Shown here piece by piece: positions 20,652-37,453 of a DNA stretch of 64,000 nucleotides. Location: the NCBI GenBank assembly GCA_963799845.1, contig CAWCYI010000004.1, forward strand, positions 832,001 through 896,000. The letters are read 5' to 3'. Origin of the DNA: an uncultured Nitrososphaerota archaeon (lineage in GTDB: Archaea > Thermoproteota > Nitrososphaeria > Nitrososphaerales > CADDZS01). The notes below the pieces were generated by a model. The model had not been told where the DNA came from. It made no database searches and saw nothing but the letters and a program-made list of their open reading frames with translations. The number at the start of each line of letters is the position of its first letter. Positions within the stretch are counted from its first letter, which is position 1. The translations under genes and the position numbers were made by a program.

Positions 20652-23258
20652 CTATCCTACAGTGACTGGACCGTAAATTACGGAAGGCAGTTGTGCATTA
20701 GGAGGATCGATTCGGATTCTCCAACCATAAAAGTAGGCCGCGGTATTCGACCCCGCGTAGGTCTCAATGCCGACATACTGGTTTGTTGCTCCCAAATGCG
20801 AGTCAGTTGTACTCGCGCTCGATGATAATGTACCTGAGCCATCTGCTTCAGTGTAGATGTTGGTTGTCAAAGACGATCCGCTTATTATCGCCTGATCGAA
20901 GTACCAGCCGGTCGCGCGCGACCCGCTTCCCGCAAGCAAAGTATTCGTGGTGCCGCTTTCATATGCGATTGAGGCTGCATCACCAGTCCAACCATCTCCG
21001 AGAATGTAGTTTGTCGTGGTCGAGCTGCTGGAGCCTCTGACCGCAAAGAGACCGTTCAAGTTGCTAGCAATGTTCACCCACCCCTCCACAATGAAATTAT
21101 CACCCACTACTGCAGAATTATGCCAAGCGACTGTTTCCGAAGACGTGCCTGTACTTCCCTTCCCGGTAAGTGATAGAACTCCTGACGTGCCACCGTACGG
21201 GTTAGCCTGTGCGGAGGTTGATAGGGTACCACCATTAGTCACACTCAGGCCGCTCGTCGATACACCGTTATTGTAGTATAAGAAAACATTTGCGCCATCG
21301 TCGTATTGTCCATATGTCGAACTGAGCTGCGGCGCCTCGCCAAATGGGCCAGATGAGCTCAAATGGCTAGTCCCCTTTGCGTAAAATCCCATATAGATTG
21401 TGTTAGAGCTCAAAGGCGCGATTCCTGAGGAATTGAGCTTCAGCCAAAGTATTGAATTTGTATTTGTGTTAGCCGTTCCATTGGCGAGCCAGGCGTTCAG
21501 ACTGTTTCCACTGTAGTCAAAGAACAAAACGTTGTCAACAGGGTTGTCAAGATATGAGCTGTATGTGTTCCAGTTGATATTCAACATCACTTGGGTTCCT
21601 CCTGTTACTGAAGAAGTCTGGAGGTTAGCGAGCGTAATTGGAACGTAGAATAGGACGTTGCTAGGAACCGTTTTAGGCACAGGGAAATTCAAGTTTGAGT
21701 TCACAAAGCAGCCTTGAGCGGTCTGAAGTTCGGTCAAAGCGCCTGAGGCCCAATAAATTGATACTGGAAATATGTCCTGTACTGCATAGCTGAGAGTAGG
21801 CGCAAGACCGTTCCAGACGAAATTCAGGTTGCTGTTAACCGCAATATTGTTTCCAGAAGACGAACTGGACCAAGTGATGATCCCGTTGCTAACACCTTCT
21901 GTCCATCCCGAAGGGGCAGTCGCGGATACTGATGAGAATGCTGAGGCGTTCAGAACTATTTTGTCAATTGTACTTCCAGAAAAAGCTGAATTGTTCACCT
22001 CTAGTTGGAAGACAGTGTCGGTGTCCCCTGAACAAATGCTCGGAGTCTCCGAAGACCATCCAACGTTGTCCCCGGCAATGGTTGACTCGAACGGAACGTT
22101 TTGCCCGTAAATTGAGACGCTTGACTGAGTAATCTTGGTGCCAGGTACCAAAAGAAATACGGCGAACTGACCATAGTAGGCTAAGTTGTTTCCCGGAATT
22201 ACTGAATCGTCAGTACCCAGAGACATGATCTGCATGTTATTAGATTCCATCGGATATGCTGCCGCGAAGAAGATGGTTTTCGTTGCTCCGTAGGGAAGGT
22301 TGATCGGAACGAACGAGCCCGTTGTATTGCTTATTATTTCCCCATTTGCCTGATTCACGTTAACCGCATAAAAGACATAGACTGGGCTAGTCTCCCCACA
22401 GTGGCTCGTTGGAGTGCCAGCGTCGCAGGTCTCAATGACCCAGATATTTGCCAAAGAGTTAATCACCACCGTGCTCTGCTGCGAATCTGCATTCGTTATA
22501 TTTACAGAGAATACGATCGGAACCTCAATACCGCAATAGCCGCAGCCATCATCGGTGTGGTTCTGGCCCTCGGGAACCAAAGATCCGTCGAACGGATGGT
22601 TAATGTCAAATTTCCATGTACCACCGTTGCATTGAACCCCTCCGCTGCAGAGGTTTTCAAAGTCTCCGTCTGAATCCGTCTGTGGGGGTCCAGTCAGATA
22701 ATCGTACCATTTGAAAGTGCCGAACGACAGCTCGAGTGAGCCTAGTCCTTGTGCCAGCTCCGAGTTGATGGCCGCGGCACTTTGGTATTGGTTTGGATAT
22801 GCTCCGTTCACCACTATCCCGCTGGTGGTTACAACCCTAATTACAAAGTCTTGAAACGCGCTACTGACTGTGACTGTTGTGTTGAACAAAGCCGATCGGC
22901 CTTGGCCGATGCCCACCGGGCTGGTGTAATTCTTGTACTGGACGACGGCTCCAGTGCTATTCATTACCAACCAAGCGGAAATTGAAACTGCGGATCCAGT
23001 ATTATTGACGTAAAAAGAGAGTACTTGACCCGAAATGACCGTTCCATAAACTAGTAGGTTCGAGGCGCTTTGGATCAATTGATTCTGCTTCTGGTCATTT
23101 TGCAATAGATTCTGTTCGTAGGTCCGCTGCTGGGAGCTAATGCTGTAGAAATAGGTAGTTCCAACACTGAAGACTATCCCAAACAAGATAAGGGCAGCGA
23201 TGACAGGAGCAGTCGCGCGTCTGAGTCGCATTCTTTTTCCAAAATTGTTATTGTGCAA
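20652..23258 (-). CDS. Giant pilin-like adhesin with class III signal peptide and DUF2341-like C-terminal region
   Basis: RRATAPVIAALILFGIV N-terminus; DNVLFFDYSGNSLNAWL...LWLKL...IYMGF...GEAPQLSSTYGQYDDGANVF. Confidence 0.8.
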   Translation of the reverse strand: MHNNNFGKRMRLRRATAPVIAALILFGIVFSVGTTYFYSISSQQRTYEQNLLQNDQKQNQLIQSASNLLVYGTVISGQVLSFYVNNTGSAVSISAWLVMNSTGAVVQYKNYTSPVGIGQGRSALFNTTVTVSSAFQDFVIRVVTTSGIVVNGAYPNQYQSAAAINSELAQGLGSLELSFGTFKWYDYLTGPPQTDSDGDFENLCSGGVQCNGGTWKFDINHPFDGSLVPEGQNHTDDGCGYCGIEVPIVFSVNITNADSQQSTVVINSLANIWVIETCDAGTPTSHCGETSPVYVFYAVNVNQANGEIISNTTGSFVPINLPYGATKTIFFAAAYPMESNNMQIMSLGTDDSVIPGNNLAYYGQFAVFLLVPGTKITQSSVSIYGQNVPFESTIAGDNVGWSSETPSICSGDTDTVFQLEVNNSAFSGSTIDKIVLNASAFSSVSATAPSGWTEGVSNGIITWSSSSSGNNIAVNSNLNFVWNGLAPTLSYAVQDIFPVSIYWASGALTELQTAQGCFVNSNLNFPVPKTVPSNVLFYVPITLANLQTSSVTGGTQVMLNINWNTYSSYLDNPVDNVLFFDYSGNSLNAWLANGTANTNTNSILWLKLNSSGIAPLSSNTIYMGFYAKGTSHLSSSGPFGEAPQLSSTYGQYDDGANVFLYYNNGVSTSGLSVTNGGTLSTSAQANPYGGTSGVLSLTGKGSTGTSSETVAWHNSAVVGDNFIVEGWVNIASNLNGLFAVRGSSSSTTTNYILGDGWTGDAASIAYESGTTNTLLAGSGSRATGWYFDQAIISGSSLTTNIYTEADGSGTLSSSASTTDSHLGATNQYVGIETYAGSNTAAYFYGWRIRIDPPNAQLPSVIYGPVTVG

Positions 23259-23310: not shown

Positions 23311-25152
23311 TTAGATCACCGTGCAGACTAATGCTTCCTGCATTGTAGTAATCTCACCCGTCGTCCATGTTATTACGATCGGAAACACGTACTGAGTGGT
23401 TGATGCCGGCGAAGGAGCTGTAGCCTTCCAAGTGAAAGTGTCTGTGGTTCCGTTCGCGATGTAATCGGATGGAGTAACAGAATTCCAGGTGATATAACCC
23501 GAATGCGGGGAGTTGGCGGTACCCGTCCAGCCGGTCGGGCTTGCTGAAACACTCACCGAACTAAATGCTGATGCGTTGAGTACTATGTTATCTATTCCCA
23601 CAGGGTTTGTAGGATTTGCGTAGGCGAATATCGAATCATTTACAACTAGCTTAAAGGTTGCCTGCACACCGGGGGTGGCCGTTGTATTTGTTTCTGATAT
23701 CCAGCCGAAGTTATCGGCAGCGGTTGTAGATTCAAACGGAATGTTCTGCCCATAAACTTGGACGCTCGGAGAAATTATTTTCGTTCCGGAGAACAAGAGA
23801 AATACTGCAAACTGTCCGTAATAAAACGGATTGGTGGTAACCGCGCTGGTTAATCCTACCGCTGACATTGGTTGAAGTGAAAGATCGTATGCCGCTCCGT
23901 AGTAGAGAGTTTTCGTCACTCCGTACGGAATGATAATTTCGGAGAAAGAGCCCGCCGTGGTGCTGGTTATGGCTCCAGTTGTGGGATTTACATTCATCAG
24001 GTAGAAGACGAAGAACGGATTTCCACTCGGACAGTTTCCCTCCGTCACTCCTGAATCGCAAGTTTCAATGACCCAAAGGTTTGAGGCAGAGTTGATTACG
24101 ACTGTCCCCAGAGACGGATCGTCGTTTGTGATATTCACTGAGAAAGCGACGGGAATCTGGTAGTATGGTGAAGTTGTTGTGGTTGTTGTGGTGGTGGTTG
24201 TGGAGGTAGAGGTGCTGGTGGATGTAATTGTGGTCTTCGGAGCACTTGTAGTGATGGTTGACGTGATCGTTGATGTAGTTGTGCCGCAGCCGCACCCGAC
24301 ATGATGAGTCGTAGTAGTCGTAGTAGTGGTTGTGGTTGTGGGGGTATAGCTGGTCAGCGTCGTCGTAGTAGTAGTGGTGGTAGTCGAATAAGATGTGCTG
24401 TAATACACTTGTGTAGGATTGTAACCTCCGGGAACCAGTGATCCACTGTGCGGATGAGCGACGTCGATTGTCCAAGCCCCACCGTTGCAGTTTGTCTCCT
24501 GTTCTGAAGAACTAGCGCAGAGGTTATCGAAGACGGTACTGCCTTGTGTAGTTGTCGCTGATGGTCCGTTGCGATAGCTGTACCAATTAAAACTAGAAAA
24601 TCCCATCTCCAGCGAACCGAAACCCCCCGCCACGAGAGAGTTTACCGTTGCGCCCGTAATTTGCTGTGAAGGGTATGTTCCCACTCCCTGTGTTCCTCGA
24701 GCGGTCAGAACTTTGATTACGTATTTAGCTCCCGCTGGAATTATAATCGAGGGATTCAGACTTATCGCATTGAATGTGGCTGACTGCCCCTGGCCAACAT
24801 TGAAGGGAAGAGCCTCGTTTGAACTTGTAGTCGAATTCACGTATTGAATAATGTTGCCCGAGGTCCCGTTCAAAATCCAATACGAGACGATAGAAATTGC
24901 GACGCCCGTGTTGTTGACGTAGAAGGCGAGCTCTCCTGACTGGGACTCTCCGAATACAGTGAGGTGCTCAGCGCTCGGGCCATTAAGGAAATTGTTGTTG
25001 TTTTGAGCTATTGATTTCTGAAGGTTAGACTGGTCCTGCGTGATTATGTAAAAGTAGGTAGAGCCCACCGTTATGAGCATCGCAAACAGCATCACCGCGC
25101 CGATGACTGACGAGACTGATCTCTTTCTCTTCAACGTGACTTTGGACAACAT
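23311..25152 (-). CDS. Large pilin-like protein with class III signal peptide and poly-Thr insert
   Basis: KRKRSVSSVIGAVMLFAML; paralogous to the N-terminal ~520 aa of the 868-aa protein (WVIETCD, YYGQFAVFLL, YGQN.PFEST). Confidence 0.8.
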   Translation of the reverse strand: MLSKVTLKRKRSVSSVIGAVMLFAMLITVGSTYFYIITQDQSNLQKSIAQNNNNFLNGPSAEHLTVFGESQSGELAFYVNNTGVAISIVSYWILNGTSGNIIQYVNSTTSSNEALPFNVGQGQSATFNAISLNPSIIIPAGAKYVIKVLTARGTQGVGTYPSQQITGATVNSLVAGGFGSLEMGFSSFNWYSYRNGPSATTTQGSTVFDNLCASSSEQETNCNGGAWTIDVAHPHSGSLVPGGYNPTQVYYSTSYSTTTTTTTTTLTSYTPTTTTTTTTTTTHHVGCGCGTTTSTITSTITTSAPKTTITSTSTSTSTTTTTTTTTTSPYYQIPVAFSVNITNDDPSLGTVVINSASNLWVIETCDSGVTEGNCPSGNPFFVFYLMNVNPTTGAITSTTAGSFSEIIIPYGVTKTLYYGAAYDLSLQPMSAVGLTSAVTTNPFYYGQFAVFLLFSGTKIISPSVQVYGQNIPFESTTAADNFGWISETNTTATPGVQATFKLVVNDSIFAYANPTNPVGIDNIVLNASAFSSVSVSASPTGWTGTANSPHSGYITWNSVTPSDYIANGTTDTFTWKATAPSPASTTQYVFPIVITWTTGEITTMQEALVCTVI

Positions 25153-25188
25153 TTTTCGACGCGCTCCTCCCTTTCCCTGAAAGTCTCT

Positions 25189-25800
25189 CTAGAGTACCGC
25201 GGGGGTCACTTGTTGGTACTGGGTTGAGACGACGGCACACTGATAAGAGTAGTAACTGCTAGTCTTGCTCACTTGCGTAAGTGTCTCGTTGTGTGCTTCA
25301 GACTGGAACGCATAAATTGCATTTTTAGAGAATGTTATCGGGGAGGTGTTTGCACTCGTCAGTGTGTTTATCGTGAGTGACTTCACATTTTCAGTTAATA
25401 TCTGTCCAGTGGTATTGGTCCTTGACTGAGCCAGAGTGTAAGTATCCAATTTGGTAGAATTACTTATCTGAATATTCGTGATGTTAACCGCGCCGTGCCC
25501 ATTATTGTAGAACCAAAGCGTGATCAAGTTGGCGTTGGTGCTGCTGAAATTTGCGTTGATAATGACGAGTCCGAGATTGAGACATCCAGAGTTGGTGCCA
25601 ATCGTGTTTCCAAAATTCTTCTCGCTCGCTTCTGCAGCACTGCTCGCCCAAGCCCAGACTGCGAATCCTACAGCAAGTGTGACACCCAAAAGTAGAATTG
25701 ATCCCATTACTTCGCTTGCGGCGAGTCGGGATCGTTTTCCTGCTAATTTTTTATTGAGATTTTTCAAGGTTTGATCAGATCGACTTAATGTAATTTTCAT
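25189..25800 (-). CDS. Minor type IV pilin
   Basis: KRSRLAASEVMGSILLLGVTLAVG class III signal; LWFYNNG motif. Confidence 0.8.
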   Translation of the reverse strand: MKITLSRSDQTLKNLNKKLAGKRSRLAASEVMGSILLLGVTLAVGFAVWAWASSAAEASEKNFGNTIGTNSGCLNLGLVIINANFSSTNANLITLWFYNNGHGAVNITNIQISNSTKLDTYTLAQSRTNTTGQILTENVKSLTINTLTSANTSPITFSKNAIYAFQSEAHNETLTQVSKTSSYYSYQCAVVSTQYQQVTPAVL

Positions 25801-25808
25801 AAATTAGA

Positions 25809-26351
25809 GAATAAGAAAAAAGGGGAGGAGGGACACGTGATCCTCTCAGTAGGCTTAGCGTTCTACTGAGCAATCAGTGAACCCGATACGGACTGTCCGT
25901 TTGCGAAGTTAATGACGTAGTTGAAGACTTGTCCTGTAGTGATCGGTTGTGCTGGTGCAGCATTCTCCGGATAGTAAGTAAATGATGTGACCGTTCCAGC
26001 GGCCATCGCGTTGTTGCCTGGGTGACTTGAAGTGAAGACGACCAAGTTGCCTCCGGTAGCAACGTTCGTATTGTTGTCCCACGCTGCGATAGTTGCTATA
26101 CCACTGCCCGTCATGGTCACCGAAGTGATGTATGTCGCTGAACCTGGGTTGTTAAGCGCAATTGTGAGGCTTGACGTTGCTGCTGCAGCTACAGTTGCGG
26201 TTGTCCCACCGTAGAGTGTTGCCGATGAGAGTGTTACTGTCTTCACGTTCGAACCGAACAGACCAAACGTGTAAGCTCCGACGACGAGTGCTAAGACGAG
26301 TGTTCCTGCGATCAGGATGATTGTTGCAATGACAGGAGTAACTCCTCTCTT
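25809..26351 (-). repeat. 543-bp inverted repeat, copy A (pilin gene plus 3' UTR)
   Basis: Reverse complement of 33227..33769; about 25 mismatches by manual alignment, all in two patches. Confidence 0.95.
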
Positions 26352-26384
26352 GCTGTTCTTCATCCTAAGTCTTTGGGTGTTCAT
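25863..26384 (-). CDS. pilA: Major type IV pilin, copy A
   Basis: KRG/VTPVIATIILIAGTLVLALVV class III signal peptide; first gene of the pilin operon. Confidence 0.9.
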   Translation of the reverse strand: MNTQRLRMKNSKRGVTPVIATIILIAGTLVLALVVGAYTFGLFGSNVKTVTLSSATLYGGTTATVAAAATSSLTIALNNPGSATYITSVTMTGSGIATIAAWDNNTNVATGGNLVVFTSSHPGNNAMAAGTVTSFTYYPENAAPAQPITTGQVFNYVINFANGQSVSGSLIAQ

Positions 26385-27369
26385 GAGAGTGAAATCTCTC
26401 CGTCGTAATATTAGGTCTTAGGAAGATACACTTTTGATTGAAGACTCAGGGCCGTAGTACGAAGAGCATATGATATATCGGATGTTGAGTCTTGACATTT
26501 GTACAACGAACGCCTAGGAATCGAGATTCGTTACATCGAAAAACCATTTTCCAAATAAAAAGACGATGGCTGCGATCAGGGCAAGATATTTGTCTGATTT
26601 CCATGATTCAGCTAAGTTCCATCTGAATAGAGCTGATTCAATTGTGAGGATAAAGTACCACAAAGACCAAAATCTTGAGCAGGTAATTGAGGCCGTTGTC
26701 AAACAGACTTGGTGAACGAAAGAAATGACAGCGTAACAAATCCAATCAAATCGAAGCACTAAGAAGATACTTAGCTTTATCAACAATAAACTCTCCCGGT
26801 GTGCGCACCTCTCTACAATGCTCCCTTTCTCTAGTGCAAATCGTTCGATACCTGAGGCGAATACGCGATTTTCAATCGGCGAATAATATCTTGTCTCCTG
26901 AGAGAGAACTCTATGAGAAATGCCGATATCAAAGCGTATAGGACTCCTAACATCCCAAACACCATAATAAAAGCCACGTGGATTGCATATAGTGCATACG
27001 ACTCTTCACCCAATATTGTGAACTTGCTCAAAATATTAGGCGGATGCGCGACTATTGCCGAAAATCCTACAAGTGTAAAGCAGTAGAATACAATCGCGAA
27101 TGGATAAGGAGCAGAGTAAATGTTCGCAAAAGGAAAAGGAGTGGAGAAAATATTCAACGGATTTACGAAATTTGAGAATATCAGACCAGAGATGCCTAAT
27201 AGAGCAAGCCACCCCAAGTTGGAAGAAATCTTGTCACAATATGCGAATATTCCCAACGCATATGCAATACCAGCGACAGGAATGAATGTCTGAAGGTACG
27301 GCAAACCATATTGTCCGTTCGAAGAGTACGCGTACCCCAACAAGAACGCTACTCCTACGAACGTAACTA

Positions 27370-28493
27370 ACCTGGCCGACATAAATTATTAGACTGAAAG
27401 GGCCACAGACCTAGACATTCTCATTTTTGGCCAACTTCCCTTCCTATCTCAGGTTGTATGTCTCGATTACAGGCACCGAAGGAGATTGTTGAAGAGGCTT
27501 ATAGAGAGGAGAGGGACGCAAACGTAAGCAAGAGGATATTCCTCGTTCTGAAGGTCAAGTACGAGGGTGTCCCGGCGTCGCACGTAGCAAGGGAAGTTCA
27601 CCGGCACAAATCATGGACGACACCGTGGCTTAGACGTTTCGAGAAAGATGGGCTAGAAGGACTCAAGACGATGGAAAGGAGCGGGAGACCTCCGAAGCTC
27701 GATCACAACAAGTTCATTGCGGTGAAGAGGAAGGTCGTGAAGAACGAATGCGGCTGGACCGTGAAGGAGGTCAGGGAGATGATCCGCAAGGAAGCAGACG
27801 TGGCATACACTGAGAGACACATCTACAGGTTGATGCAGAAGTGGGGAGTGAGAGCAATTGTCCCTGACAAGAGGTTACTTCACAAGGCTTCCCTCGAAGA
27901 GAGGCTCGAATTTAAAAAAGGACCGCAAGACTCCTCAGGAATATCCCGGAAGGCTTCACCGTAGCATCCGAAGACGAATCAATCTTCGTCCAGAACATAG
28001 AAACCAAAAGGGTGTGGGCGGTCAAAGGGATTCGACCGATTCGGATTGTGTCAGGCTCGCACGGCAACACCGTGGTGTTTGGAGCGATCAGCCTGGACGG
28101 GACACAAATCTTCAGGCAGTACGAGAAATTCAATGGCGAGACATTCCTCGACTACCTGAAGAAGGTGCACAGGAAGTTTGGATCACTCTATCTCTTCCTT
28201 GACAAAGCAAGGCAACACCACAAAACCAGGATCGTAACTGATTATTTGGGTAAGAACAGGAAGACTCTCAGAGTCAGATGGATCCCGACAGCTTCGCCAG
28301 AGTTCAACATGATGGAGGAGTGTTGGCGCGAGGGTGAGAAGGATCTCTCAAGGCTTCCAACCTTTCCGACGTCATTGAAAGAACTGAAATCAATCCTGGC
28401 AGAATACTATCGAACGCGAAGGTTTTGCTCGCATCTTGACATGAAGAAATTCCTTCTGACCAACAGGTGTCTATGAACTTATGTCGGCCAGGT
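27370..28493 (+). mobile_element. IS630-family insertion sequence (1124 bp)
   Basis: Perfect 15-bp TIR ACCTGGCCGACATAA with imperfect extension to about 25 bp; TA duplicated at 27368-69 and 28494-95. Confidence 0.92.
27458..28476 (+). CDS. IS630 transposase in two ORFs joined by a probable programmed -1 frameshift
   Basis: ORF1 HTH (RSGRPPKL, WT); slippery TTTAAAAAAG at 27911-27920; -1 frame DDE core (SEDES, FLDKA, SPEFNMMEECW). Confidence 0.88.
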
Positions 28494-29693
28494 TATACTT
28501 GCAAGTATGATCTTCTGATTTACCCTAAGTCTACTAATTATTGGAATCAGTAGGTAGACTGCCTCTTCAAGTTGCAGTGTCCAGAATATGGCTGCTGGCA
28601 CGTATCCGAGTGGGTTTACATAATATTCGACAAAGAAAAGATATCTTACGAAAGCCCAAAATGGAATGTGAAATAGGAAGTAGAAACTAATGATTGAACC
28701 ATAATAAATTGGCCAGATTCGGAGGATCCGTCTTTTGAAGTAGTGTTTCAAGTCGGGCTTTGTTTTTAGGCTGTTCAGAAGAAGGTACATGCTCAGCATA
28801 AAGAAAATTGGGACACCAAGATAGCCAAGCAAGATAAAACCAAAAACCAGAGTCGGAAAGTCAAAGTATCCGCCCATGTGAAATACCACTACGCTGAGCG
28901 CAGCTATTCCTCTCAATCCTGAAAGTCTCGGATCGAAGTTGTGGGTCGGAAGCTTAATTGTGGACTTTGCAGTGATCGTTTCTCTGGTCTGATGTGTCAT
29001 TTTACGCAGTCCAAGATTCGATAAGACATTTTTCAGCATGATGCATTCAAGCTCTTTGGACCGCGATTTTTGGAAATTGTCTACCAAAGAAAAATGAGGT
29101 AGAGGGAACACCGAGTTATGAAAGGAGTAATCTTTTCTTTCCCGCAGTTGCGATCCATTGCGTTTCTATGAGTAATCGGTACGTCGACGCTCTTATATCG
29201 GTGATGCAGTTAGGATTCATGAACTCGCATCCATTACGGTCAAAAGTTGAGTCAAAGAAGTTACCTTGTATTTCATCTTGAAATTTCAGGAGAATTTAGG
29301 GCTATCTTGAATTGAGTTATGGTACTTGCTTAGTGGCGTAGAGCCACTAAGAATCATCTCCAGGGAGCTGAACGAGTCGATCGCGCACGCAAAGATAATA
29401 GGAAAGCTAAGATCTACATGGACGCACATTAGAGTCCGAACGAACGGTTTGGTTCCGCTACACATTCAATTATCAAAAGTGTCAGTTATATCTAATCACA
29501 GTATATTTGGAAGATAGTTGTTCCAGAGCAATTCGAAATCATTAAGCAAGTTTTACCCACGTCTTTCCAACCAGGAAATATTATTGCTAACTAAGATCAC
29601 GCCCGTCATTAATGGAGGATTTTGATAGTATTCTGAACTACAGATCGGTACCCCAAGACTGGGTCGCGAAGAAATGAGCCCAAATCTTTAGGA

Positions 29694-32321
29694 TTGATAT
29701 TTCATGCATTCATTAATTTTTTTATAATCCGAAACGAGAATCAGTATATCGCGTCCACAACCACTATTAAAAAAAGTAGGAGCACATTTCTCGTTTCATA
29801 CTTGAATAGTTGTTTCGATAATTGGACTGATCGTGCTCGACCAACGAACTGTCGAATGATTCTTCTTACAAGTGCCTTACTCTTTATCTTTTTGAGCGTA
29901 ACTTTCATGTCTCCATCATTTGTAGAAATGAAATCCTCATCAGCTGTTGCTCAGACTGGACTCGCGTTGGAGTTGAGTGTCCGTCCTCCAGTACTTCCTG
30001 CCGATGGGGGCAGCTACCAAGCGATAGTTCTTGAACTCATGAATCTTACTTCCGGGAAACCGTACATTCCGGCGTCGGATGTTCCAATTTATCTTACGTC
30101 TTCGAGTCCCCAGACTGGCACGGTTCCCAGCGAAGTAACTTTCAGCGCCGGCAGTTTGTTTGAAGTCGTTAATTTCACTACAACAACTTTGCCCGGAAAA
30201 ACTACTATCAGCGGAGTAGCCTCAGGCTATCAACTCGGCAGCTTATCGGTGACCACTAAGACAATTGGAGGAATTCCCAATGCTTTGCAAGTTTTCTTGA
30301 GTCCTGATGTAATACCACCAGACAAGAGCGTTAATTCTCAAGTGATCGTTGAAGCAGTCGACGCCTTTGGGAATCCTGTGGATCTGGACAGCAGTTTGAA
30401 TGTTGCCTTGTCGTCCTCTGACACTCAGATTGGAACAGTTCCTTCGTCTCTTACTATTCCTTCCGGCCAAAGTTTTGGGACAACAGAGTTTTCGCCAACT
30501 TATATCGCGGGTGTGACAACAATTACTGCTTCCGCAGGAAATTATACCACCGGATCGGCAGTTATGAATACAGTAGGACCTATTGCTAGAAGATTGGTCT
30601 TATCGGGACCTTTGACTATTCCGGCAGCCTCGGGTCAAACTGCGCTTATCTCCATACAATTGCAAGACAACAATAGTCAGACCCCAGCGCTCGCTCCTTT
30701 GCCTGTAAGCTTGGTCTTAACAACTAACAACACTGCCGTCGCGGATGTGTCAAGCACAACTCAGACAATTCCTTCCGGCTCATCGTATACCACGATTACA
30801 ATAACTTCGGGAGGTGGTGCTGGCACAGCAAACATCACGGCTTCCGCTCAAGGTTATGTTAAGGGTTCAATTCTAGTTCAGGCCATCGCAGCATCACCCT
30901 CGCCCAATGAGCTATCAGAGTATTTTGTGCCGAACACCCTATTGCCTAACAATGCTACATATTCGGGTGCATTAGTGGTTCAGCTAGAATTTCATAATAG
31001 CACAAGCGGTACAACAGTGCCGGCAGTTGCTCAGAATCCACTGTCCATCTATGCACGGTCGTCAAATAATGCAACAATGCAGGTCGCGACGCAATTTCAG
31101 GGGAGCCAGAATTCCGGAATTATCAATACAGGTGAGTCAGAAGTAGCAATAAGTGTAGCATCCACGTTCTTACCCGGGACCTCTGAAATAACAGCTCAAA
31201 GTCCGGGCCTCGCATCCTCGACAGCAGGCCTACTGTCCTTTGGCCCTGCCCCAAATACTCTAAGTGTAAGTTTCGCTCCATGGACATTACTTTCTGACGG
31301 GAGGACCTATTCACCAGTGACGGTTGGTCTAATTGACAATTCGACAGGTCAGCCTGCCCGGGCACCGGTGAATACAATTGTAAATCTTGCTAGCACAATT
31401 TCGAGCGTTGGAAAAGTCGAAGGAAGTGTAACTATTCCTGCGGGTCAGACTTATGCAAGAGCAACATTCACAACTTTTGCCGTCAATGGCTCGACGCTGA
31501 TAACTGCTAGTGCATCGAACTACACGTCAACAAATGCAACGCTTAACTTAGTGACGAAGGCCGCCACAAGTCTAGGTCTTTATGCCACTCCAAGTTTGGT
31601 TCTCGGAAATGGACAAGAGTTTTCGAATATCGTAGTTCAGTTGCAAGACTCGAAAGGAAACCCAGAGAAAACAGATGCTCCTATCACGGTGAGGCTTTCA
31701 GTTCTAAACTCATCTGTAGGTTCGGTTCCACCTGAGGCCGTTATCCCAGCAGGGAATACATTCACACAAATAGAATTGAATTCTTCTTTGTTGGCAGGCT
31801 CTACAAATATCACAGCCGTGGCGACCGGTTTTCAAGCAGGACAGGCCGAATTCATGAGTTTTGAACTCCCCATGAATGTTTCATCATCTATCTTGAATCC
31901 ACATCTGTATCCTGGTGAACGCACGAATATCACGATCCTAGCCATGTCTGATGGGAATCCAATCTTTGGTGCCAACGTAAATTGGTCTATAGTTACAGGC
32001 TCATTACTTAGCACAGACAACTTAACAGACGCGAATGGGACTGCCACTGCAGTATATTCAGCAGGCAACCTTCCGGGCGCAAATCTTGTTACAGTGCAAG
32101 TTTCAAAACCAGGATTTTCCACGTTCGTTATTCAGACTTCGGTCAGAACTCTTAACGCCAGTGCCTCAGAGTCAGCGACAAAACCTTCTTTGCTAGATTC
32201 AAATATTCTGTTCATCCCAGTCTGGATTCTTATCGTCATTGCAATCGCGGCTCCTGCTGGAACATTTTTCTTCATTAGGAGAAGATCTGCTAAGGGCTAC
32301 ACGGTAGACGAGGAAGAGTAA
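29694..32321 (+). CDS. Invasin/Ig-like repeat cell-surface protein with C-terminal anchor (start likely downstream of 29694)
   Basis: Roughly 100-aa repeats (LPADG...VQLQD..GNP...V.LSSS...G.VP..VTIP.G), a Big_1-like TDANGTATA segment, then TM, RRR and an acidic tail. Confidence 0.85.
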   Translation: MIFHAFINFFIIRNENQYIASTTTIKKSRSTFLVSYLNSCFDNWTDRARPTNCRMILLTSALLFIFLSVTFMSPSFVEMKSSSAVAQTGLALELSVRPPVLPADGGSYQAIVLELMNLTSGKPYIPASDVPIYLTSSSPQTGTVPSEVTFSAGSLFEVVNFTTTTLPGKTTISGVASGYQLGSLSVTTKTIGGIPNALQVFLSPDVIPPDKSVNSQVIVEAVDAFGNPVDLDSSLNVALSSSDTQIGTVPSSLTIPSGQSFGTTEFSPTYIAGVTTITASAGNYTTGSAVMNTVGPIARRLVLSGPLTIPAASGQTALISIQLQDNNSQTPALAPLPVSLVLTTNNTAVADVSSTTQTIPSGSSYTTITITSGGGAGTANITASAQGYVKGSILVQAIAASPSPNELSEYFVPNTLLPNNATYSGALVVQLEFHNSTSGTTVPAVAQNPLSIYARSSNNATMQVATQFQGSQNSGIINTGESEVAISVASTFLPGTSEITAQSPGLASSTAGLLSFGPAPNTLSVSFAPWTLLSDGRTYSPVTVGLIDNSTGQPARAPVNTIVNLASTISSVGKVEGSVTIPAGQTYARATFTTFAVNGSTLITASASNYTSTNATLNLVTKAATSLGLYATPSLVLGNGQEFSNIVVQLQDSKGNPEKTDAPITVRLSVLNSSVGSVPPEAVIPAGNTFTQIELNSSLLAGSTNITAVATGFQAGQAEFMSFELPMNVSSSILNPHLYPGERTNITILAMSDGNPIFGANVNWSIVTGSLLSTDNLTDANGTATAVYSAGNLPGANLVTVQVSKPGFSTFVIQTSVRTLNASASESATKPSLLDSNILFIPVWILIVIAIAAPAGTFFFIRRRSAKGYTVDEEE

Positions 32322-32365
32322 GACGATCGAGACACGTTACATGACCGGGCGAATTAACGGCATAA

Positions 32366-32932
32366 GTGACACACTGCTTGAGCCACGAGAAGCCCTCCAG
32401 TCAACATGGAGGAAACAACGTAGTCGGATCACGTTCGATAAAATTTCACGTCCACCAAACCTCGAATAGAGCGGCGGGTAACAGGCCCTACGTTTATTGC
32501 ATCACGCGAGATGGACGGTTGCTTGTTTTCAAATTGGAAGCAAATACCGCGATCTCCGTAGGTGAATTTGCCGGGTTCACGAAAGGACTTCAAGTTTGGC
32601 TGCCAGTCCAGTGCAATAGCTGCAACTTGATCCAGTTTGTAGATCTTGGGACTGCATATGCTGACGAAACAACTTCCAAAGTAAATACTCTTGATACTGG
32701 TAGGGCCAGGCATTACGGGGGAAAACTCGAATGTGCAAGCTGCAAACAAGTTGTGAGAGTGCAGATACGCTTTTCATTTTACGCCTCTACTGCCACGTTT
32801 TCACTTGAAGAAATTGAGAACGGAACTATTGTTTTTGTAATTGGGATGCGTGAGTTTTTCAACTCGGCTAAAGAGTCCATCTCTCCAAACGGACACACGG
32901 TGCAGCAGGGATCTTTAATGCACTTTGGTTAG
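32366..32932 (+). CDS. Hypothetical protein with two CxxC motifs (Zn ribbon)
   Basis: CNSC and CASC; start uncertain. Confidence 0.55.
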   Translation: MTHCLSHEKPSSQHGGNNVVGSRSIKFHVHQTSNRAAGNRPYVYCITRDGRLLVFKLEANTAISVGEFAGFTKGLQVWLPVQCNSCNLIQFVDLGTAYADETTSKVNTLDTGRARHYGGKLECASCKQVVRVQIRFSFYASTATFSLEEIENGTIVFVIGMREFFNSAKESISPNGHTVQQGSLMHFG

Positions 32933-33202
32933 ACTTTCTAGCATTTATCTAACCGAGAATATTTCTGCAAGATTAAAGTTCCAAAAGCTTCGCGAGAGAC
33001 AGGAAGTCTTGGAGAGTTGACTATGATTAGAATAACATGGCCACTCCCTGCCGCGAAGTAAATTTGATTCTTGAAAGAAGGTAATTTAAGTAATTATTGT
33101 CCTTTTTTGGAAGATCTTTGATTAAGGAATTATCGATCTGATTTTAAAATCCATCAGGCATATGAACCCGAAATTACTTACGTTATAGAAGGTTTCTGAC
33201 CT

Positions 33203-33715
33203 ATGATTATCTCGCAAAAGCGATCGAAGAGAGGAGTTACTCCTGTCATTGCAACAATCATCCTGATCGCAGGAACACTCGTCTTAGCACTCGTCGTCGG
33301 AGCTTACACGTTTGGTCTGTTCGGTTCGAACGTGAAGACAGTAACACTCTCATCGGCAACACTCTACGGTGGGACAACCGCAACTACAGCTTCAGCAGCA
33401 ACGTCAAGCCTCACAATTGCGCTTAACAACCCAGGTTCAGCGACATACATCACTTCGGTGACCATGACGGGCAGTGGTATAGCAACTATCGCAGCGTGGG
33501 ACAATTCAACGCTAGCATCTTCGGGTGCTAACTTGATAGTCTTCACCGGAAGTTATCCAGGCAACAACGCGATGGCCGCTGGAACGGTCACATCATTTAC
33601 TTACTATCCGGAGAATGCTGCACCAGCACAACCGATCACTACAGGACAAGTCTTCAACTACGTCATTAACTTCGCAAACGGACAGTCCGTATCGGGTTCA
33701 CTGATTGCTCAGTAG
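33203..33715 (+). CDS. pilA: Major type IV pilin, copy B
   Basis: Same class III signal and mature sequence as copy A except for two variable patches. Confidence 0.9.
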   Translation: MIISQKRSKRGVTPVIATIILIAGTLVLALVVGAYTFGLFGSNVKTVTLSSATLYGGTTATTASAATSSLTIALNNPGSATYITSVTMTGSGIATIAAWDNSTLASSGANLIVFTGSYPGNNAMAAGTVTSFTYYPENAAPAQPITTGQVFNYVINFANGQSVSGSLIAQ

Positions 33716-33769
33716 AACGCTAAGCCTACTGAGAGGATCACGTGTCCCTCCTCCCCTTTTTTCTTATTC
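33227..33769 (+). repeat. 543-bp inverted repeat, copy B
   Basis: See copy A; includes a shared C/T-rich terminator-like tail. Confidence 0.95.
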
Positions 33770-33806
33770 CCCAAAAATCACGAAAATTATGATTATCGAT
33801 TTGATC

Positions 33807-33848
33807 GCAAACGGACAATCTGTACCAGGTTCGCTGATTGCTCAGTAA
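33807..33848 (+). pseudogene. Third pilin 3'-end remnant
   Basis: gcaaacggacaatctgtaccaggttcgctgattgctcagtaa encodes ANGQSVPGSLIAQ*, versus ANGQSVSGSLIAQ* in both full copies. Confidence 0.85.
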
Positions 33849-33990
33849 TTCGAGCAAAGAGACTTCGAAAGCTGTAACGCTCGAATTCTAAGAGCCAGAA
33901 TGAAGCATCTGGTTAATGGCGAGATGCTTCGAAAATTTTTGTTCTCTGCCAGAGTCGCTAATTTGACCTTGAAATATAGATCATAGTGAG

Positions 33991-34554
33991 TTAAGACGCC
34001 TCAGGATACTCCATCGGCATGATTTTCTTTGTAGAGTCAACAATTTCTTCATTCGAGCGGCTCCTCCTTTCGTTTCTGAAATAAGCTATTGCGAGCGCAG
34101 CAAAACCAGTCAGTACCAGCGAAACCGATAAGGAAACAATCGACTGCGCAAACTGGAATATTCCGACGACTAAGGAAGGAAGATTTGGGACGTTGATGGT
34201 GTCTCCGGCGTACAATATGAGTGGAAAATATGCAAAGATGAATCCAACCATTGAACCAAAGAATAGTAAAAGAATCAGAGTGCTATAATTCTCTCGGAAA
34301 TGCGCTGTTATTCTCGACCTGCCCCATCCATAGATTATTACGAATACTAGGCAAGGAGCAAGAAGAAAAGAAACAAATGGCAACACTAGATAGTTGACAT
34401 AGTTTATCCAAATCGAATTTACATTTGATTTGAAAAGCAATTGAAGAACCAATTGACCAATTACTTGGTTAAACGCATAAATGGCTCCAACCAACAAACC
34501 CACAAAGAAAATTTCCCTTACATGACAGTTAACCCTAAGCTGAGGAAGGTACAA
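33991..34554 (-). CDS. Hypothetical four-TM membrane protein
   Basis: Four hydrophobic segments and a charged C-terminal tail. Confidence 0.65.
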   Translation of the reverse strand: MYLPQLRVNCHVREIFFVGLLVGAIYAFNQVIGQLVLQLLFKSNVNSIWINYVNYLVLPFVSFLLAPCLVFVIIYGWGRSRITAHFRENYSTLILLLFFGSMVGFIFAYFPLILYAGDTINVPNLPSLVVGIFQFAQSIVSLSVSLVLTGFAALAIAYFRNERRSRSNEEIVDSTKKIMPMEYPEAS

Positions 34555-34856
34555 TTGCAGTCAATGCAATATCCCCATAATCTACGATTTAGACGTGCCT
34601 ATACAAGACGTTTTCTTTATGCAAGGTACAACTGATCAGTACTTGAAATTTATCGTTCGAGGTTTGAAGAGCATCTCTAGCTTCGATTTTCCAATCTATT
34701 TCTGTTAAAATAACATGTAAGATCCCACTGTGTCATTGACACAATGACCTCTGATCTAGTTTCAGGCTCTCTAACCATTGAATGGAAATGGAATCCGTCA
34801 CAAATATGGATTTGATGATTGTGTTTTCAATCTACTATTGGATTTGATTTTCATTA

Positions 34857-35081
34857 TTGCCTAAATTAGAAGCTCTATACACAGCGAAGCCCATCAGTTG
34901 CAAGAGCGGATTCCACGATCCACCTGTTCTGGTCAATGGCTACTACGAATTTGCCACAGAAGAAAAGCAAGCCAGATTTTGGAAGTTCCTCTCGCCAGTT
35001 GAAAAATCAAGACTCATGAATGAATATCACGAGAGCGGCAAGTGCCTTCTTTGTTCAATAGATGAAGCTCTAATGCGGTAG
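34857..35081 (+). CDS. Small hypothetical Cys/His protein
   Basis: C..GFH and CLLC in a 74-aa ORF. Confidence 0.4.
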   Translation: MPKLEALYTAKPISCKSGFHDPPVLVNGYYEFATEEKQARFWKFLSPVEKSRLMNEYHESGKCLLCSIDEALMR

Positions 35082-35743: not shown

Positions 35744-37453
35744 TTGAAATTGAAATTACCATTCGGCAGTTCGAGTAAGAAACAAACTCCTACCGATAAG
35801 CTGAACGAAACTGCAAAGAAGGCTCACAAAAAGACCTCGCCTAATGAGCCAATAATCGTTGAGGGGCCAATGATCGGGAAGATCATGCCAAAGAACTTTG
35901 AAGTCCTCGAACGTTATGCGCTCACACCCCCATTTGCCTACGCGGTTATTGCTGAAGACACGTCGATGAAGCTTCCATATTACTTCGTTGACGAACTGGA
36001 ACTCACTCTCAACGAAAAGTCACTGTACAACAATATCATCTCAGTCCTTCAAACCGAGCTAAAGGCCCCGAGAGATGACGTTGATCCGAAGAAATATTTT
36101 GCTGAACAGGCACGTATCATAGCAGATCGCTACAAGCTGACTCAGCAAAAGAGTGTCCAGGTATCGTGGGCGAAAATCCTGTATTACGCGGAAAGAGACC
36201 TCGTTGGATTCGGTGGAATAGATGCACTGATGCGAGATCCAAATATCGAAGACGTCTCGGTGGATGGCGCAGGGAAGGGAGTCTTCGTCTATCACAGGCG
36301 CTACGAAAGCATCGAAACAAATCTCACGTTTTCAAACGAGCAGAAGCTTGACGACATGATTGTAAGGCTCGTCCACATGTCGGGAAAGCACGTCTCGACA
36401 GCTTTTCCGATCGTAGACGCAACTCTCCCCGGAGGTCACAGGCTTGCTGCCACGTTCAGACGCGAAGTCTCTCCGCAGGGTTCGACACTTACTATCAGAA
36501 AATTCAGAAAAGATCCAATCACGATCATCGACTTGATCAATTTCGGCGTACTCGATTACGCGATAGCCGCGTATGCGTGGCTACTGATCGAAAACAGATT
36601 CACCGCAGTGGTAGTTGGGGCAACAGCCTCAGGAAAGACCACCTTCCTCAATGCGCTGCTCTCCATGATCAATCCAAACTCCAAGATCGTGACAATCGAA
36701 GAGGTCCAAGAAATAAACATCCACCACGTAAACTGGGCTCCTCTCATTTCAAGATTGAGCTACGGATTATCAGAGAATAACGTCGGAGAGGTTACATTGT
36801 TTAACTTGGTAAAGGCGGCAATGAGAATGCGTCCGGACATAATGGTCGTGGGAGAGGTAAGAGGTGAAGAAGCATATGCGCTCTTCCAGGCGATCTCAAC
36901 CGGTCACGGTGGTCTCGCAACTTTGCACGCGGAAGACGCGGGCTCTGCTATCCAAAGACTCACTTCGAAGCCGATGGACGTAGCTCCATCTTACTTGAGC
37001 TTCCTTGATCTTACATTTTCAGTTAGGCGTGTCGCCATACCAGATCCGACTAGCCCCGGCAACCCCAGGATCGTGAGAAGAGTAATTTCAGTAGACGAGA
37101 TAATAGACTCTACAAAATGGGTCCAGTCTTTCGTCTGGGATCCAAGCAAGGACAAATTCTACCAGTATCTGGACAAGAGTGTGAAGCTCAGAAAACTTGC
37201 CAAGGACTATGGAAAATCCATGGGTGACATAATGAAAGAAATCGCAAACAGAATTCAGGTTTTGCAGTGGCTCCGCTCGCGGAACATCAGAAACTACATC
37301 GAAATCAGTACAGTGTTCTCCCAATACCACGCAGACCCTCAAGGGGTCCTCTCAAAGATCAGAGTCGAGGCAATGAGCAAATCTGTCTTCGAAAAGGAAG
37401 ATGAACACGATGAGGATGGCGCTCTGATGGTCGAACCAAGCACCGAAGAATAG
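35744..37453 (+). CDS. pilB: Type IV pilus assembly ATPase (VirB11/ArlI-like)
   Basis: Walker A GATASGKTT, Asp box TIEEVQEI, RMRPDIMVVGEVRG, His box TGHGGLATLHA. Confidence 0.92.
   Translation: MKLKLPFGSSSKKQTPTDKLNETAKKAHKKTSPNEPIIVEGPMIGKIMPKNFEVLERYALTPPFAYAVIAEDTSMKLPYYFVDELELTLNEKSLYNNIISVLQTELKAPRDDVDPKKYFAEQARIIADRYKLTQQKSVQVSWAKILYYAERDLVGFGGIDALMRDPNIEDVSVDGAGKGVFVYHRRYESIETNLTFSNEQKLDDMIVRLVHMSGKHVSTAFPIVDATLPGGHRLAATFRREVSPQGSTLTIRKFRKDPITIIDLINFGVLDYAIAAYAWLLIENRFTAVVVGATASGKTTFLNALLSMINPNSKIVTIEEVQEINIHHVNWAPLISRLSYGLSENNVGEVTLFNLVKAAMRMRPDIMVVGEVRGEEAYALFQAISTGHGGLATLHAEDAGSAIQRLTSKPMDVAPSYLSFLDLTFSVRRVAIPDPTSPGNPRIVRRVISVDEIIDSTKWVQSFVWDPSKDKFYQYLDKSVKLRKLAKDYGKSMGDIMKEIANRIQVLQWLRSRNIRNYIEISTVFSQYHADPQGVLSKIRVEAMSKSVFEKEDEHDEDGALMVEPSTEE

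Follow-up and report, generated by a model that had tools for sequence, protein, structure and literature searches.

Why would an archaeon keep two copies of its major pilin gene that agree to the letter over most of the mature protein, disagree sharply in one short stretch and have nothing in common upstream? The question is raised by a locus in the genome of an uncultured Nitrososphaerota archaeon of the Nitrososphaerales (assembly GCA_963799845.1, 9 contigs, 4.6 Mb, 86.7% complete; G000 below). The window, i.e. the whole stretch of DNA that was analysed, comprises 64,000 nucleotides (nt) of contig CAWCYI010000004.1 (C4:832001-896000 of G000), and the coordinates of features are window positions (Table 1). 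The two genes, copy A and copy B, form the arms of an inverted repeat. A preliminary description, made from the letters of this DNA, had seen in them a candidate system for pilin switching or antigenic variation. We argue here that the twins are probably the outcome of long-lasting concerted evolution by gene conversion, limited to the mature coding region and leaving one loop unconverted.

The extent of the repeat is sharply defined. A repeat finder gives inverted arms at 25804-26351 and 33227-33774 (548 nt, 95% complementary, spacing 6875 nt). Compared base by base, the strict inverted repeat is 543 nt long (25809-26351/33227-33769) with 25 differences, exactly as claimed in the preliminary description (three nucleotides plus about 22 changes in a patch). 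The arms begin to agree at the K-R-G codons of the class III signal peptide and cease to do so 54 nt past the stop codon. The upstream DNA and the leaders (MNTQRLRMKNS vs MIISQKRS) give no alignment between the copies, which confirms that these parts are unrelated. Over the mature coding sequence, copy B has 94.8% nucleotide identity to copy A. Three of the differences lie at offsets 159, 160 and 165 (26192/26191/26186 vs 33386/33387/33392; site 1 below), the other 22 at offsets 278-329 (26022-26073 vs 33505-33556; the 52-nt patch), and there are none in the remaining ~330 nt of the mature-coding arm. When 25 differences were placed at random on 543 sites, none of 200,000 permutations reached 22 in a window of 52 nt (maximum 13, mean 5.9). 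The 3' untranslated region (UTR) common to both arms contains a T-run. Its RNA fold is no better than that of shuffled sequences (z -0.62; 56 of 200 shuffles fold as well), and we do not claim a terminator hairpin.

Both genes are Aap-like type IV major pilins of a Nitrososphaerales archaeon. The identification draws on the signal peptide, a weak family match, the modelled fold and its structural neighbours, linked assembly genes and a prepilin peptidase encoded elsewhere in the genome. Each copy has a short basic leader ending in SKRG, followed by VTPVIATIILIAGTLVLALVV (a class III signal peptide). This last stretch is invariant in 30 of the 30 aligned relatives. The matches to Pilin_N (PF07790) are weak, at 17.9 bits for copy A and 18.9 bits for copy B, below the gathering cut-off of 25.2. 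The AlphaFold model, built with an input alignment of 30 sequences, has a mean predicted local distance difference test score (pLDDT) of 83.2 and shows an N-terminal helix (17-43) and an immunoglobulin (Ig)-like beta-sandwich with seven strands. Its best Foldseek matches (6NAV, 6W8X, 8TIB, 8Q30 and 8FK7; E 1.6e-5 to 1.8e-4) are adhesion pili of Sulfolobus islandicus (6NAV), S. solfataricus (6W8X) and S. acidocaldarius (Aap, 8Q30), plus Pyrobaculum pili. Genes for a pilus assembly ATPase (T2SSE) and a platform protein (T2SSF) lie 2 kb downstream of copy B, and a Peptidase_A24 prepilin peptidase is found at C6:26416-26736 (47.4 bits). Only copy A precedes the genes for pilin-like proteins of 203, 613 and 868 amino acids (g203, g613 and g868), so the earlier statement that it alone heads the minor-pilin/adhesin operon stands.

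The evidence for gene conversion comes from the comparison of complete twin pairs, of which there are four (G000, G007, G011 and the pair formed by the contigs L064 and L068). Within a genome, the mature regions share 94.8% (G000), 90.6% (G007), 89.4% (G011) and 100% (L064/L068) of their nucleotides; between genomes, identity is at most 81%. In a maximum-likelihood tree, all four pairs are sisters (support 99/98, 98/94 and 100/100, with one pair identical). Synteny, in contrast, pairs the copies by position. The B loci of G000 and L068 have the same neighbours on both sides, and the A promoters and leaders of the two are clearly orthologous. In G007 and G011, synteny is found between the upstream copy and copy A, and the A leaders are again orthologous (MNKLHVRGNKKG and MNKLHVRGSKKG). 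The duplications are thus older than the lineages compared, and that of G000 is shared, in syntenic position and inverted orientation, with at least one other lineage. Moreover, four synonymous states in the first 73 nt are common to copies A and B of L068 and differ from those in both G000 copies. Codon differences between twins are mostly synonymous in G007 (24 synonymous vs 10 non-synonymous) and G011 (25 vs 10), and in G000 they number 3 vs 11.

Twins with the same boundaries recur among relatives, inverted in L064/L068 and L081/L085, direct in G007, G011 and L065. In all four complete pairs the leaders and the upstream DNA are unrelated, and the tract starts at most 9 nt from the codons of the cleavage site. 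It ends at the stop codon in L064/L068 and in G011 A/B, and 54-75 nt beyond it in G000 and G007. The G007 genome, which belongs to another genus, has two direct copies 10.1 kb apart, with identity running from the K-K-G codons to ~75 nt past the stop codon and with unrelated leaders. The G011 genome (L035/L036) has three copies. Its A and B copies agree from K-K-G to the stop codon except at the two variable sites, and the three together are mosaic: the last ~220 nt are common to A and B, the patch is common to B and C, and C departs from the other two in a stretch where these agree. The direct twins of L065, 3 kb apart, share 81.6% identity.

The L068 contig matches the window in architecture and orientation. 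It starts inside a minus-strand copy of the A type, with A-type promoter and leader present, and continues with the gene for an 875-residue surface protein (big875, 74%), g188 (67%), the B copy, g74, g132, the ATPase gene (92%) and the platform gene (PilC, 83%). The first 159 nt of L064 are identical to the start of L068, and L064 contains a complete A copy as well as g203. The mature coding regions of L064 A and L068 B are 100% identical from V(+1) through the final codon, with no variable patch, whereas their stop codons and 3' UTRs differ. A third inverted case is provided by L081 and L085, which share one big875 gene (100% over 2412 nt) and carry an A-leader pilin and a pilin with B-type leader, respectively, at its two ends. 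Here the two pilins are identical over the 121 nt of mature region present in both, including lineage-specific synonymous states. None of the conclusions draws on the unpublished genome G001.

Paralogues closer to each other than to their positional orthologues, duplications older than the lineages compared, mosaics and sharp tract ends together point to concerted evolution. The proposal of the preliminary description that the twins exchange sequence by recombination or gene conversion is borne out by the four sister pairs, the shared synonymous states and the G011 mosaic. Its suggestion to compare the locus in related genomes gives a divided answer: the twins do recur, but the copies are homogenised sisters and the inversion is not a conserved feature.

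In the mechanism that we propose, recurrent non-reciprocal homologous recombination, presumably by a RadA-type machinery, would overwrite one pilin copy with the other. The overwriting would span the mature-pilin part, from the prepilin-peptidase site to about the stop codon, and in G000 also 54 nt of the 3' UTR of copy A, while promoters and leader peptides would remain distinct. With distinct leaders and promoters, the cell would possess two genes, at different places and presumably under different regulation, for what is in essence a single mature fibre subunit. One of these would be co-transcribed with minor pilins/adhesins, and the other precedes the genes for the assembly ATPase and the platform protein.

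What, then, of the patch? Together with site 1, it marks the entropy maxima of the protein, and these are the two places where the G000 copies differ. Across 30 family members, entropy reaches 2.42 bits in the patch and 2.23 bits in site 1, against 0.07 in the helix and 1.1-1.2 in other segments of the beta domain (71-101 and 122-173). In the model, the patch is an irregular segment between strands 101-103 and 131-140, and site 1 also falls in an irregular inter-strand segment; both loops are predicted to be exposed at the surface. In G007 and G011, too, the twins diverge at these two positions, in addition to synonymous sites scattered elsewhere. The G000 patch includes three codons that encode the same residue in both copies by different triplets. 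Allele A is similar to that of L045 and allele B to that of L048, and both retain an N-x-T sequon. Given 22 differences in 52 nt, none in the other ~330 nt outside site 1 and synonymous changes within the patch, these are not new point mutations, and the patch alleles are old rather than freshly mutated. We suggest that patch and site 1 are old diverged alleles in the two most variable loops of the Ig-like domain, missed by the latest conversion tracts. Most simply, recent conversion tracts extended over the framework on either side and skipped the densely mismatched loop. Probably, either the dense mismatches blocked heteroduplex formation or a cell with two variants was favoured. Selection of this kind is possible and would not be general, as L064/L068 have no loop variants.

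Traces of older events are preserved behind copy B. Just past 33769, a stretch of ~25 nt bears a weak likeness to the start of g203 (its score is matched by 6 of 2000 shuffles). At 33805-33847, beginning 36 nt behind the copy B repeat, there is a 43-nt remnant that encodes ANGQSVPGSLIAQ up to a stop and is 88% identical to the current pilin 3' end. The 54-nt 3' UTR common to A and B is the orthologue of the UTR of the L064 A copy and is absent behind the L068 B copy. This orthology, together with the older remnant, suggests that A sequence was copied into the B locus past the stop codon at least two times, at different dates, the direction of the 3' UTR copying probably being from A to B.

A working switch would make more of the inverted arrangement. 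That is, frequent RadA-type crossover/conversion would flip the 6.9-kb interior or move the patch and thereby give mixed populations, whose cells differ in the promoter and leader that drive each pilin variant and in the variant that precedes the adhesin operon. The topology, which the preliminary description has right, allows it: the interior includes both promoters and both leaders, and these would change places upon a crossover within the arms. The inverted arrangement is also present in three lineages (G000, L064/L068 and L081/L085). In addition, a metagenome contig of 1425 nt (L051) has an A-type promoter/leader and pilin followed by g74 and g132, which is the junction expected after inversion. 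However, L051 is a single 1.4-kb short-read contig crossing the repeat, and its junction could also be explained by a longer conversion tract or by misassembly. The pairing of leader and downstream gene is otherwise that of the reference, with the A-type leader joined to g203 in L048, L050, L055, L058, L060, L063, L064 and others, and the B-type leader joined to g74 in L068 and L066/L067. Furthermore, the twins of relatives are either identical (L064/L068) or direct (G007, G011 and L065). On balance we consider a working switch unlikely.

Sequencing runs bear on the same question. Seven were found (X1-X7), all as k-mer contigs; X1, X2, X3 and X7 were compared with window positions 26352-34900, a stretch with one arm only, and X4, X5 and X6 (shares 0.18, 0.06 and 0.06) were left out. 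Some contigs combine features of the two copies. In X1 (record 5) and X3 (record 24), the B leader is followed by A-type site 1 and patch B, and X2 (record 15) is as the reference. A 338-nt peat RNA contig from another study (X7, record 28) has the same framework with B-type site 1 and all 22 patch positions of allele A. These combinations hint at exchange and may be real recombinants or artefacts of bubble popping, and we count them on neither side. No strand-changing joint is listed in the compared runs; contigs end at the edges of repeat and patch, and the lack of such a joint therefore does not count against inversion. Alleles A and B are the only ones seen, in contigs of a kind that drops rare variants. 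Since all 22 positions recur in the peat RNA library, allele A is stable across habitats and not hypervariable on that scale. In the same library, several pilin contigs share their N-terminal (33227-33372) and C-terminal (33635-33720) stretches at ~88-90% and differ in their middles (277 letters for 262).

A variation system would also need a store of variants or an enzyme. The two alleles are the only ones in the assembly: when both patch alleles and both site-1 alleles were compared with all of it by short-word BLAST, the sole hits were the alleles themselves, and the best other match to either patch in the 4.6 Mb is 16 nt long, although a cassette could lie in the missing part of this 86.7%-complete assembly. 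Against 50 related loci, neither patch allele has a match longer than 38 nt at 87%. Matches to Phage_integrase occur at C4:2115564, on C7 and on C2, with none in the window; Resolvase has no match in the genome (the IS110/Piv-type families were not searched). The earlier remark that no site-specific recombinase is visible therefore holds, and the sole recombination enzyme found in the interior is a DDE transposase of the IS630 type. With no cassette store, a stable allele A, no patch in L064/L068 and direct twins in G007, G011 and L065, neither pilE/pilS-like variation nor a programmed switch is supported. A looser form of the idea is that the inverted twin acts as a recombination-driven regulatory shuffle, in which an occasional crossover in the mature region flips the interior and exchanges promoter/leader inputs. 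We regard this as doubtful. If true, lineages or subpopulations would exchange which input drives the major pilin with its adhesin operon and which drives the solo pilin by the ATPase gene; the unconverted patch would let the two states show different fibre surfaces, and L051 would be a natural example of the flipped state.

Could copy B simply be a young copy of A, whose patch was later replaced by DNA of another strain or paralogue? The framework is 100% identical, including synonymous sites and 54 nt of 3' UTR, and both alleles fall within the range of related species (A near L045, B near L048). Yet L068 has a pilin B in the syntenic position, as does L085 on the corresponding side of big875, degraded older layers lie behind copy B, and neither the genome nor the 50 related loci searched yielded a donor of the patch. 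A recent duplication is thus quite improbable.

An assembly/polishing artefact, by which two divergent paralogues were made to look alike, has to be considered since such repeats do disturb assemblies (L081-L085 break off within the pilin gene, and L047 is a chimera joined head to head). We hold it to be very improbable. Run X1 contains 0.97 of the sampled words over the 9.9-kb stretch of window positions 25000-34900, and contigs of X2 (record 15) and X3 (record 24) reproduce copy B with unique flanks (0 and 3 differences). The same pattern is found on single contigs of G007 and G011. Both patch alleles also occur in independent contigs (B in X1, A in X7). Targeted hypermutation, e.g. by a diversity-generating retroelement, would account for very dense changes in a short stretch of a surface protein, but its probability is negligible: adenine stands at only 6 of the 22 differing positions in copy A and 5 of 22 in copy B, the rest of the genome contains no template copy (reverse transcriptase genes were not part of the search), and allele A is the same in another habitat.

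Concerted evolution by gene conversion is left as the probable explanation, and several points weigh against it. The evidence from runs consists of k-mer contigs and has no bearing on whether conversion or inversion is ongoing in this population. Repeated re-duplication instead of conversion could explain part of the similarity; direct twins (G007/G011/L065) and inverted twins (G000/L068/L081-85) at different places imply at least two duplications in the family. Four lineages (L053, L054, L072 and L059, the last with its near-identical copies L061 and L062) have a single pilin within 10 kb on either side. As for two regulatory routes, the only leader in the RNA contigs of X7 is A-like, present in one contig as a loose end at 33227 (comparison over 33227-33739). 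Finally, the 100% identity of L064/L068 weakens the idea that loop variants are kept apart by selection.

Table 1. Features of the twin-pilin locus and its surroundings (window positions; ORF, open reading frame; IS, insertion sequence; HTH, helix-turn-helix)
Feature	Position	Strand	Basis or remark
Major pilin copy A, 173 residues, leader MNTQRLRMKNSKRG then VTPVIATIIL...	25863-26384	-	ORF; heads minor-pilin/adhesin operon
Major pilin copy B, 170 residues, leader MIISQKRSKRG	33203-33715	+	ORF; solo gene upstream of g74, g132, ATPase and platform gene
Homogenised arm A (K-R-G codons, mature coding region, 54 nt of 3' UTR including T-run)	25809-26351	-	Repeat and base comparison
Homogenised arm B	33227-33769	+	Repeat and base comparison
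Patch, allele A (NNTNVATGGNLVVFTSSH)	26022-26073	-	22 of the 25 differences
Patch, allele B (NSTLASSGANLIVFTGSY)	33505-33556	+	Base comparison; exact contig in X1 (record 6)
Site 1 in copy B, TTASA	33386-33392	+	3-nt difference; second variable loop of the family
Site 1 in copy A, TVAAA	26186-26192		3-nt difference; second variable loop of the family
Older layers downstream of copy B: ~25 nt with weak similarity to the g203 start, then 43-nt remnant of pilin 3' end	33770-33847	+	
Interior between arms: both promoters and leaders, IS-split acyltransferase, big875, g188	26352-33226		
g203, pilin-like protein, first after copy A	25189-25800	-	ORF
g613, large pilin-like/adhesin-like protein, class III-type N-terminus, Thr-rich stretch	23311-25152	-	ORF; no Pfam match
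g868, large pilin-like/adhesin-like protein	20652-23258	-	ORF; no Pfam match
Acyl_transf_3 gene split by IS630-family element	28479-29111 and 26831-27382	-	Pfam
IS630-family element (HTH and DDE_3)	27368-28495	+	Pfam; ends from loose ends of contigs
big875, Big-like surface protein of 875 residues	29694-32321	+	
g188 (188 residues)	32366-32932	+	
Pilus assembly ATPase (T2SSE)	35744-37453	+	PF00437, E 2.7e-40; 92% identical to L068 homologue
Platform protein (T2SSF, PilC/TadC-like)	37481-39382	+	PF00482, E 9.7e-20

The genes around the twins (Table 1) offer further observations. The order pilin-g203-g613-g868 is kept in G004, G007, G011, L053, L059 and others. Pfam has no family for g203, g613, g868, g188, a membrane protein of 187 residues, g74 or g132. 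At 24164-24397, g613 contains degenerate periodic repeats of 9-12 nt that encode long Thr/Ser runs, which may form the glycosylated stalk of an adhesin-like protein. The IS630-family element in the interior is 1128 bp long with terminal inverted repeats. There are 18 near-full-length copies in G000, 17 of them at 100% and one at 99.9% identity, and its depth in run X1 is ~15-fold that of its flanks; it looks to have been very recently active.

Other pilin paralogues in G000 are 33-56% identical. A second group of them lies outside the window at C4:2080281-2087428 (46-56% identical) and includes a copy with an internal TAA stop as well as fragments on opposite strands; an N-terminal pilin fragment is also found at C4:830107-830379, shortly before the window. 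Among relatives, the five related contigs L081-L085 all end inside the conserved N-terminal part of the pilin gene. The metagenome contig L047 (1014 nt) contains two pilin bodies (85% and 68% identical to copy A) that meet head to head at their G-V-T-P codons and lack a normal leader. It is probably an assembly fold-back at an inverted twin, and its junction motif GGAGTTACTCC is itself nearly palindromic.

Duplicated filament genes under concerted evolution are known in bacteria, and twin pilins have been noted in Sulfolobales. The closest working analogue is the flaA/flaB pair of Campylobacter jejuni: near-identical filament genes with sigma-28 and sigma-54 promoters, for which intragenomic recombination and differences in glycosylated surface residues are reported (PMC5126078). 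Two near-identical filament genes, different promoters and differences in loops predicted to lie at the surface are also what we find here. Unlike the G000 twins, however, flaA and flaB encode bacterial flagellins and stand in tandem, whereas the archaeal pilins are inverted and their tract stops at the cleavage site, so that the leaders differ too. The recombination between flaA and flaB is reportedly documented by Wassenaar (1995) and by Meinersmann and Hiett (2000).

The closest relative in kind is found in Saccharolobus islandicus. In strain REY15A, the twin pilins SiRe_2654 and SiRe_2659 are identical, promoters included, and are separated by transposase pseudogenes and another gene; in LAL14/1, Sil_2603 and Sil_2606 are 94% identical (PMC11178852). 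The part of PMC11178852 drawn on here states no cross-species concerted evolution for these twins, and the term 'gene conversion' is absent from PMC11178852 and PMC13705601. Both systems have an archaeal adhesion pilus with two neighbouring major-pilin genes, and the pili of this group are among the best structural matches of our model (6NAV, 8TIB). The promoters, on the other hand, are identical in REY15A, while promoters and leaders are unrelated here.

Other known systems differ more. Neisseria pilE/pilS varies a constant-framework pilin with a variable stretch by non-reciprocal homologous recombination. Here, no store of promoterless silent copies was found in the assembly or among the 50 related loci, both genes are complete, there are only two alleles, and conversion in relatives homogenises. 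In Moraxella, the Piv invertase inverts the Q/I pilin variants, with the inversion junction inside the pilin gene. That system relies on a recombinase of its own and on short sites, and its promoter and constant 5' part are outside the invertible segment. Here, no recombinase of the integrase or resolvase families was found in the window, the repeats comprise the whole mature gene and the promoters are inside the segment. The tufA and tufB genes are likewise inverted, and conversion between them is linked to inversion. Long-term gene conversion keeps dispersed duplicates alike in Salmonella (tufA/tufB) and in methanogens (mtrA), as described in PMC5485169, PMC4632066 and PMC6053082. These are housekeeping genes under uniform purifying selection, in contrast to a surface protein with two loop regions that escape.

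Our literature searches turned up no report of archaeal pilin genes undergoing gene conversion with each other, nor of a similar case in Nitrososphaerales. The locus is an unusually clean case: in several lineages the limits of homogenisation coincide, nearly to the codon, with those of the mature protein, while promoters and leaders stay distinct. For work on metagenome-assembled genomes of this group, the twins mean that pilin counts and pilus loci are likely underestimated, because such pairs break short-read assemblies (L081-L085, L047). The locus also offers a natural record of where conversion tracts end in uncultured soil archaea. For the biology of the family, the pattern of tract and leaders suggests selection for a single fibre subunit that is supplied by way of two regulatory routes.

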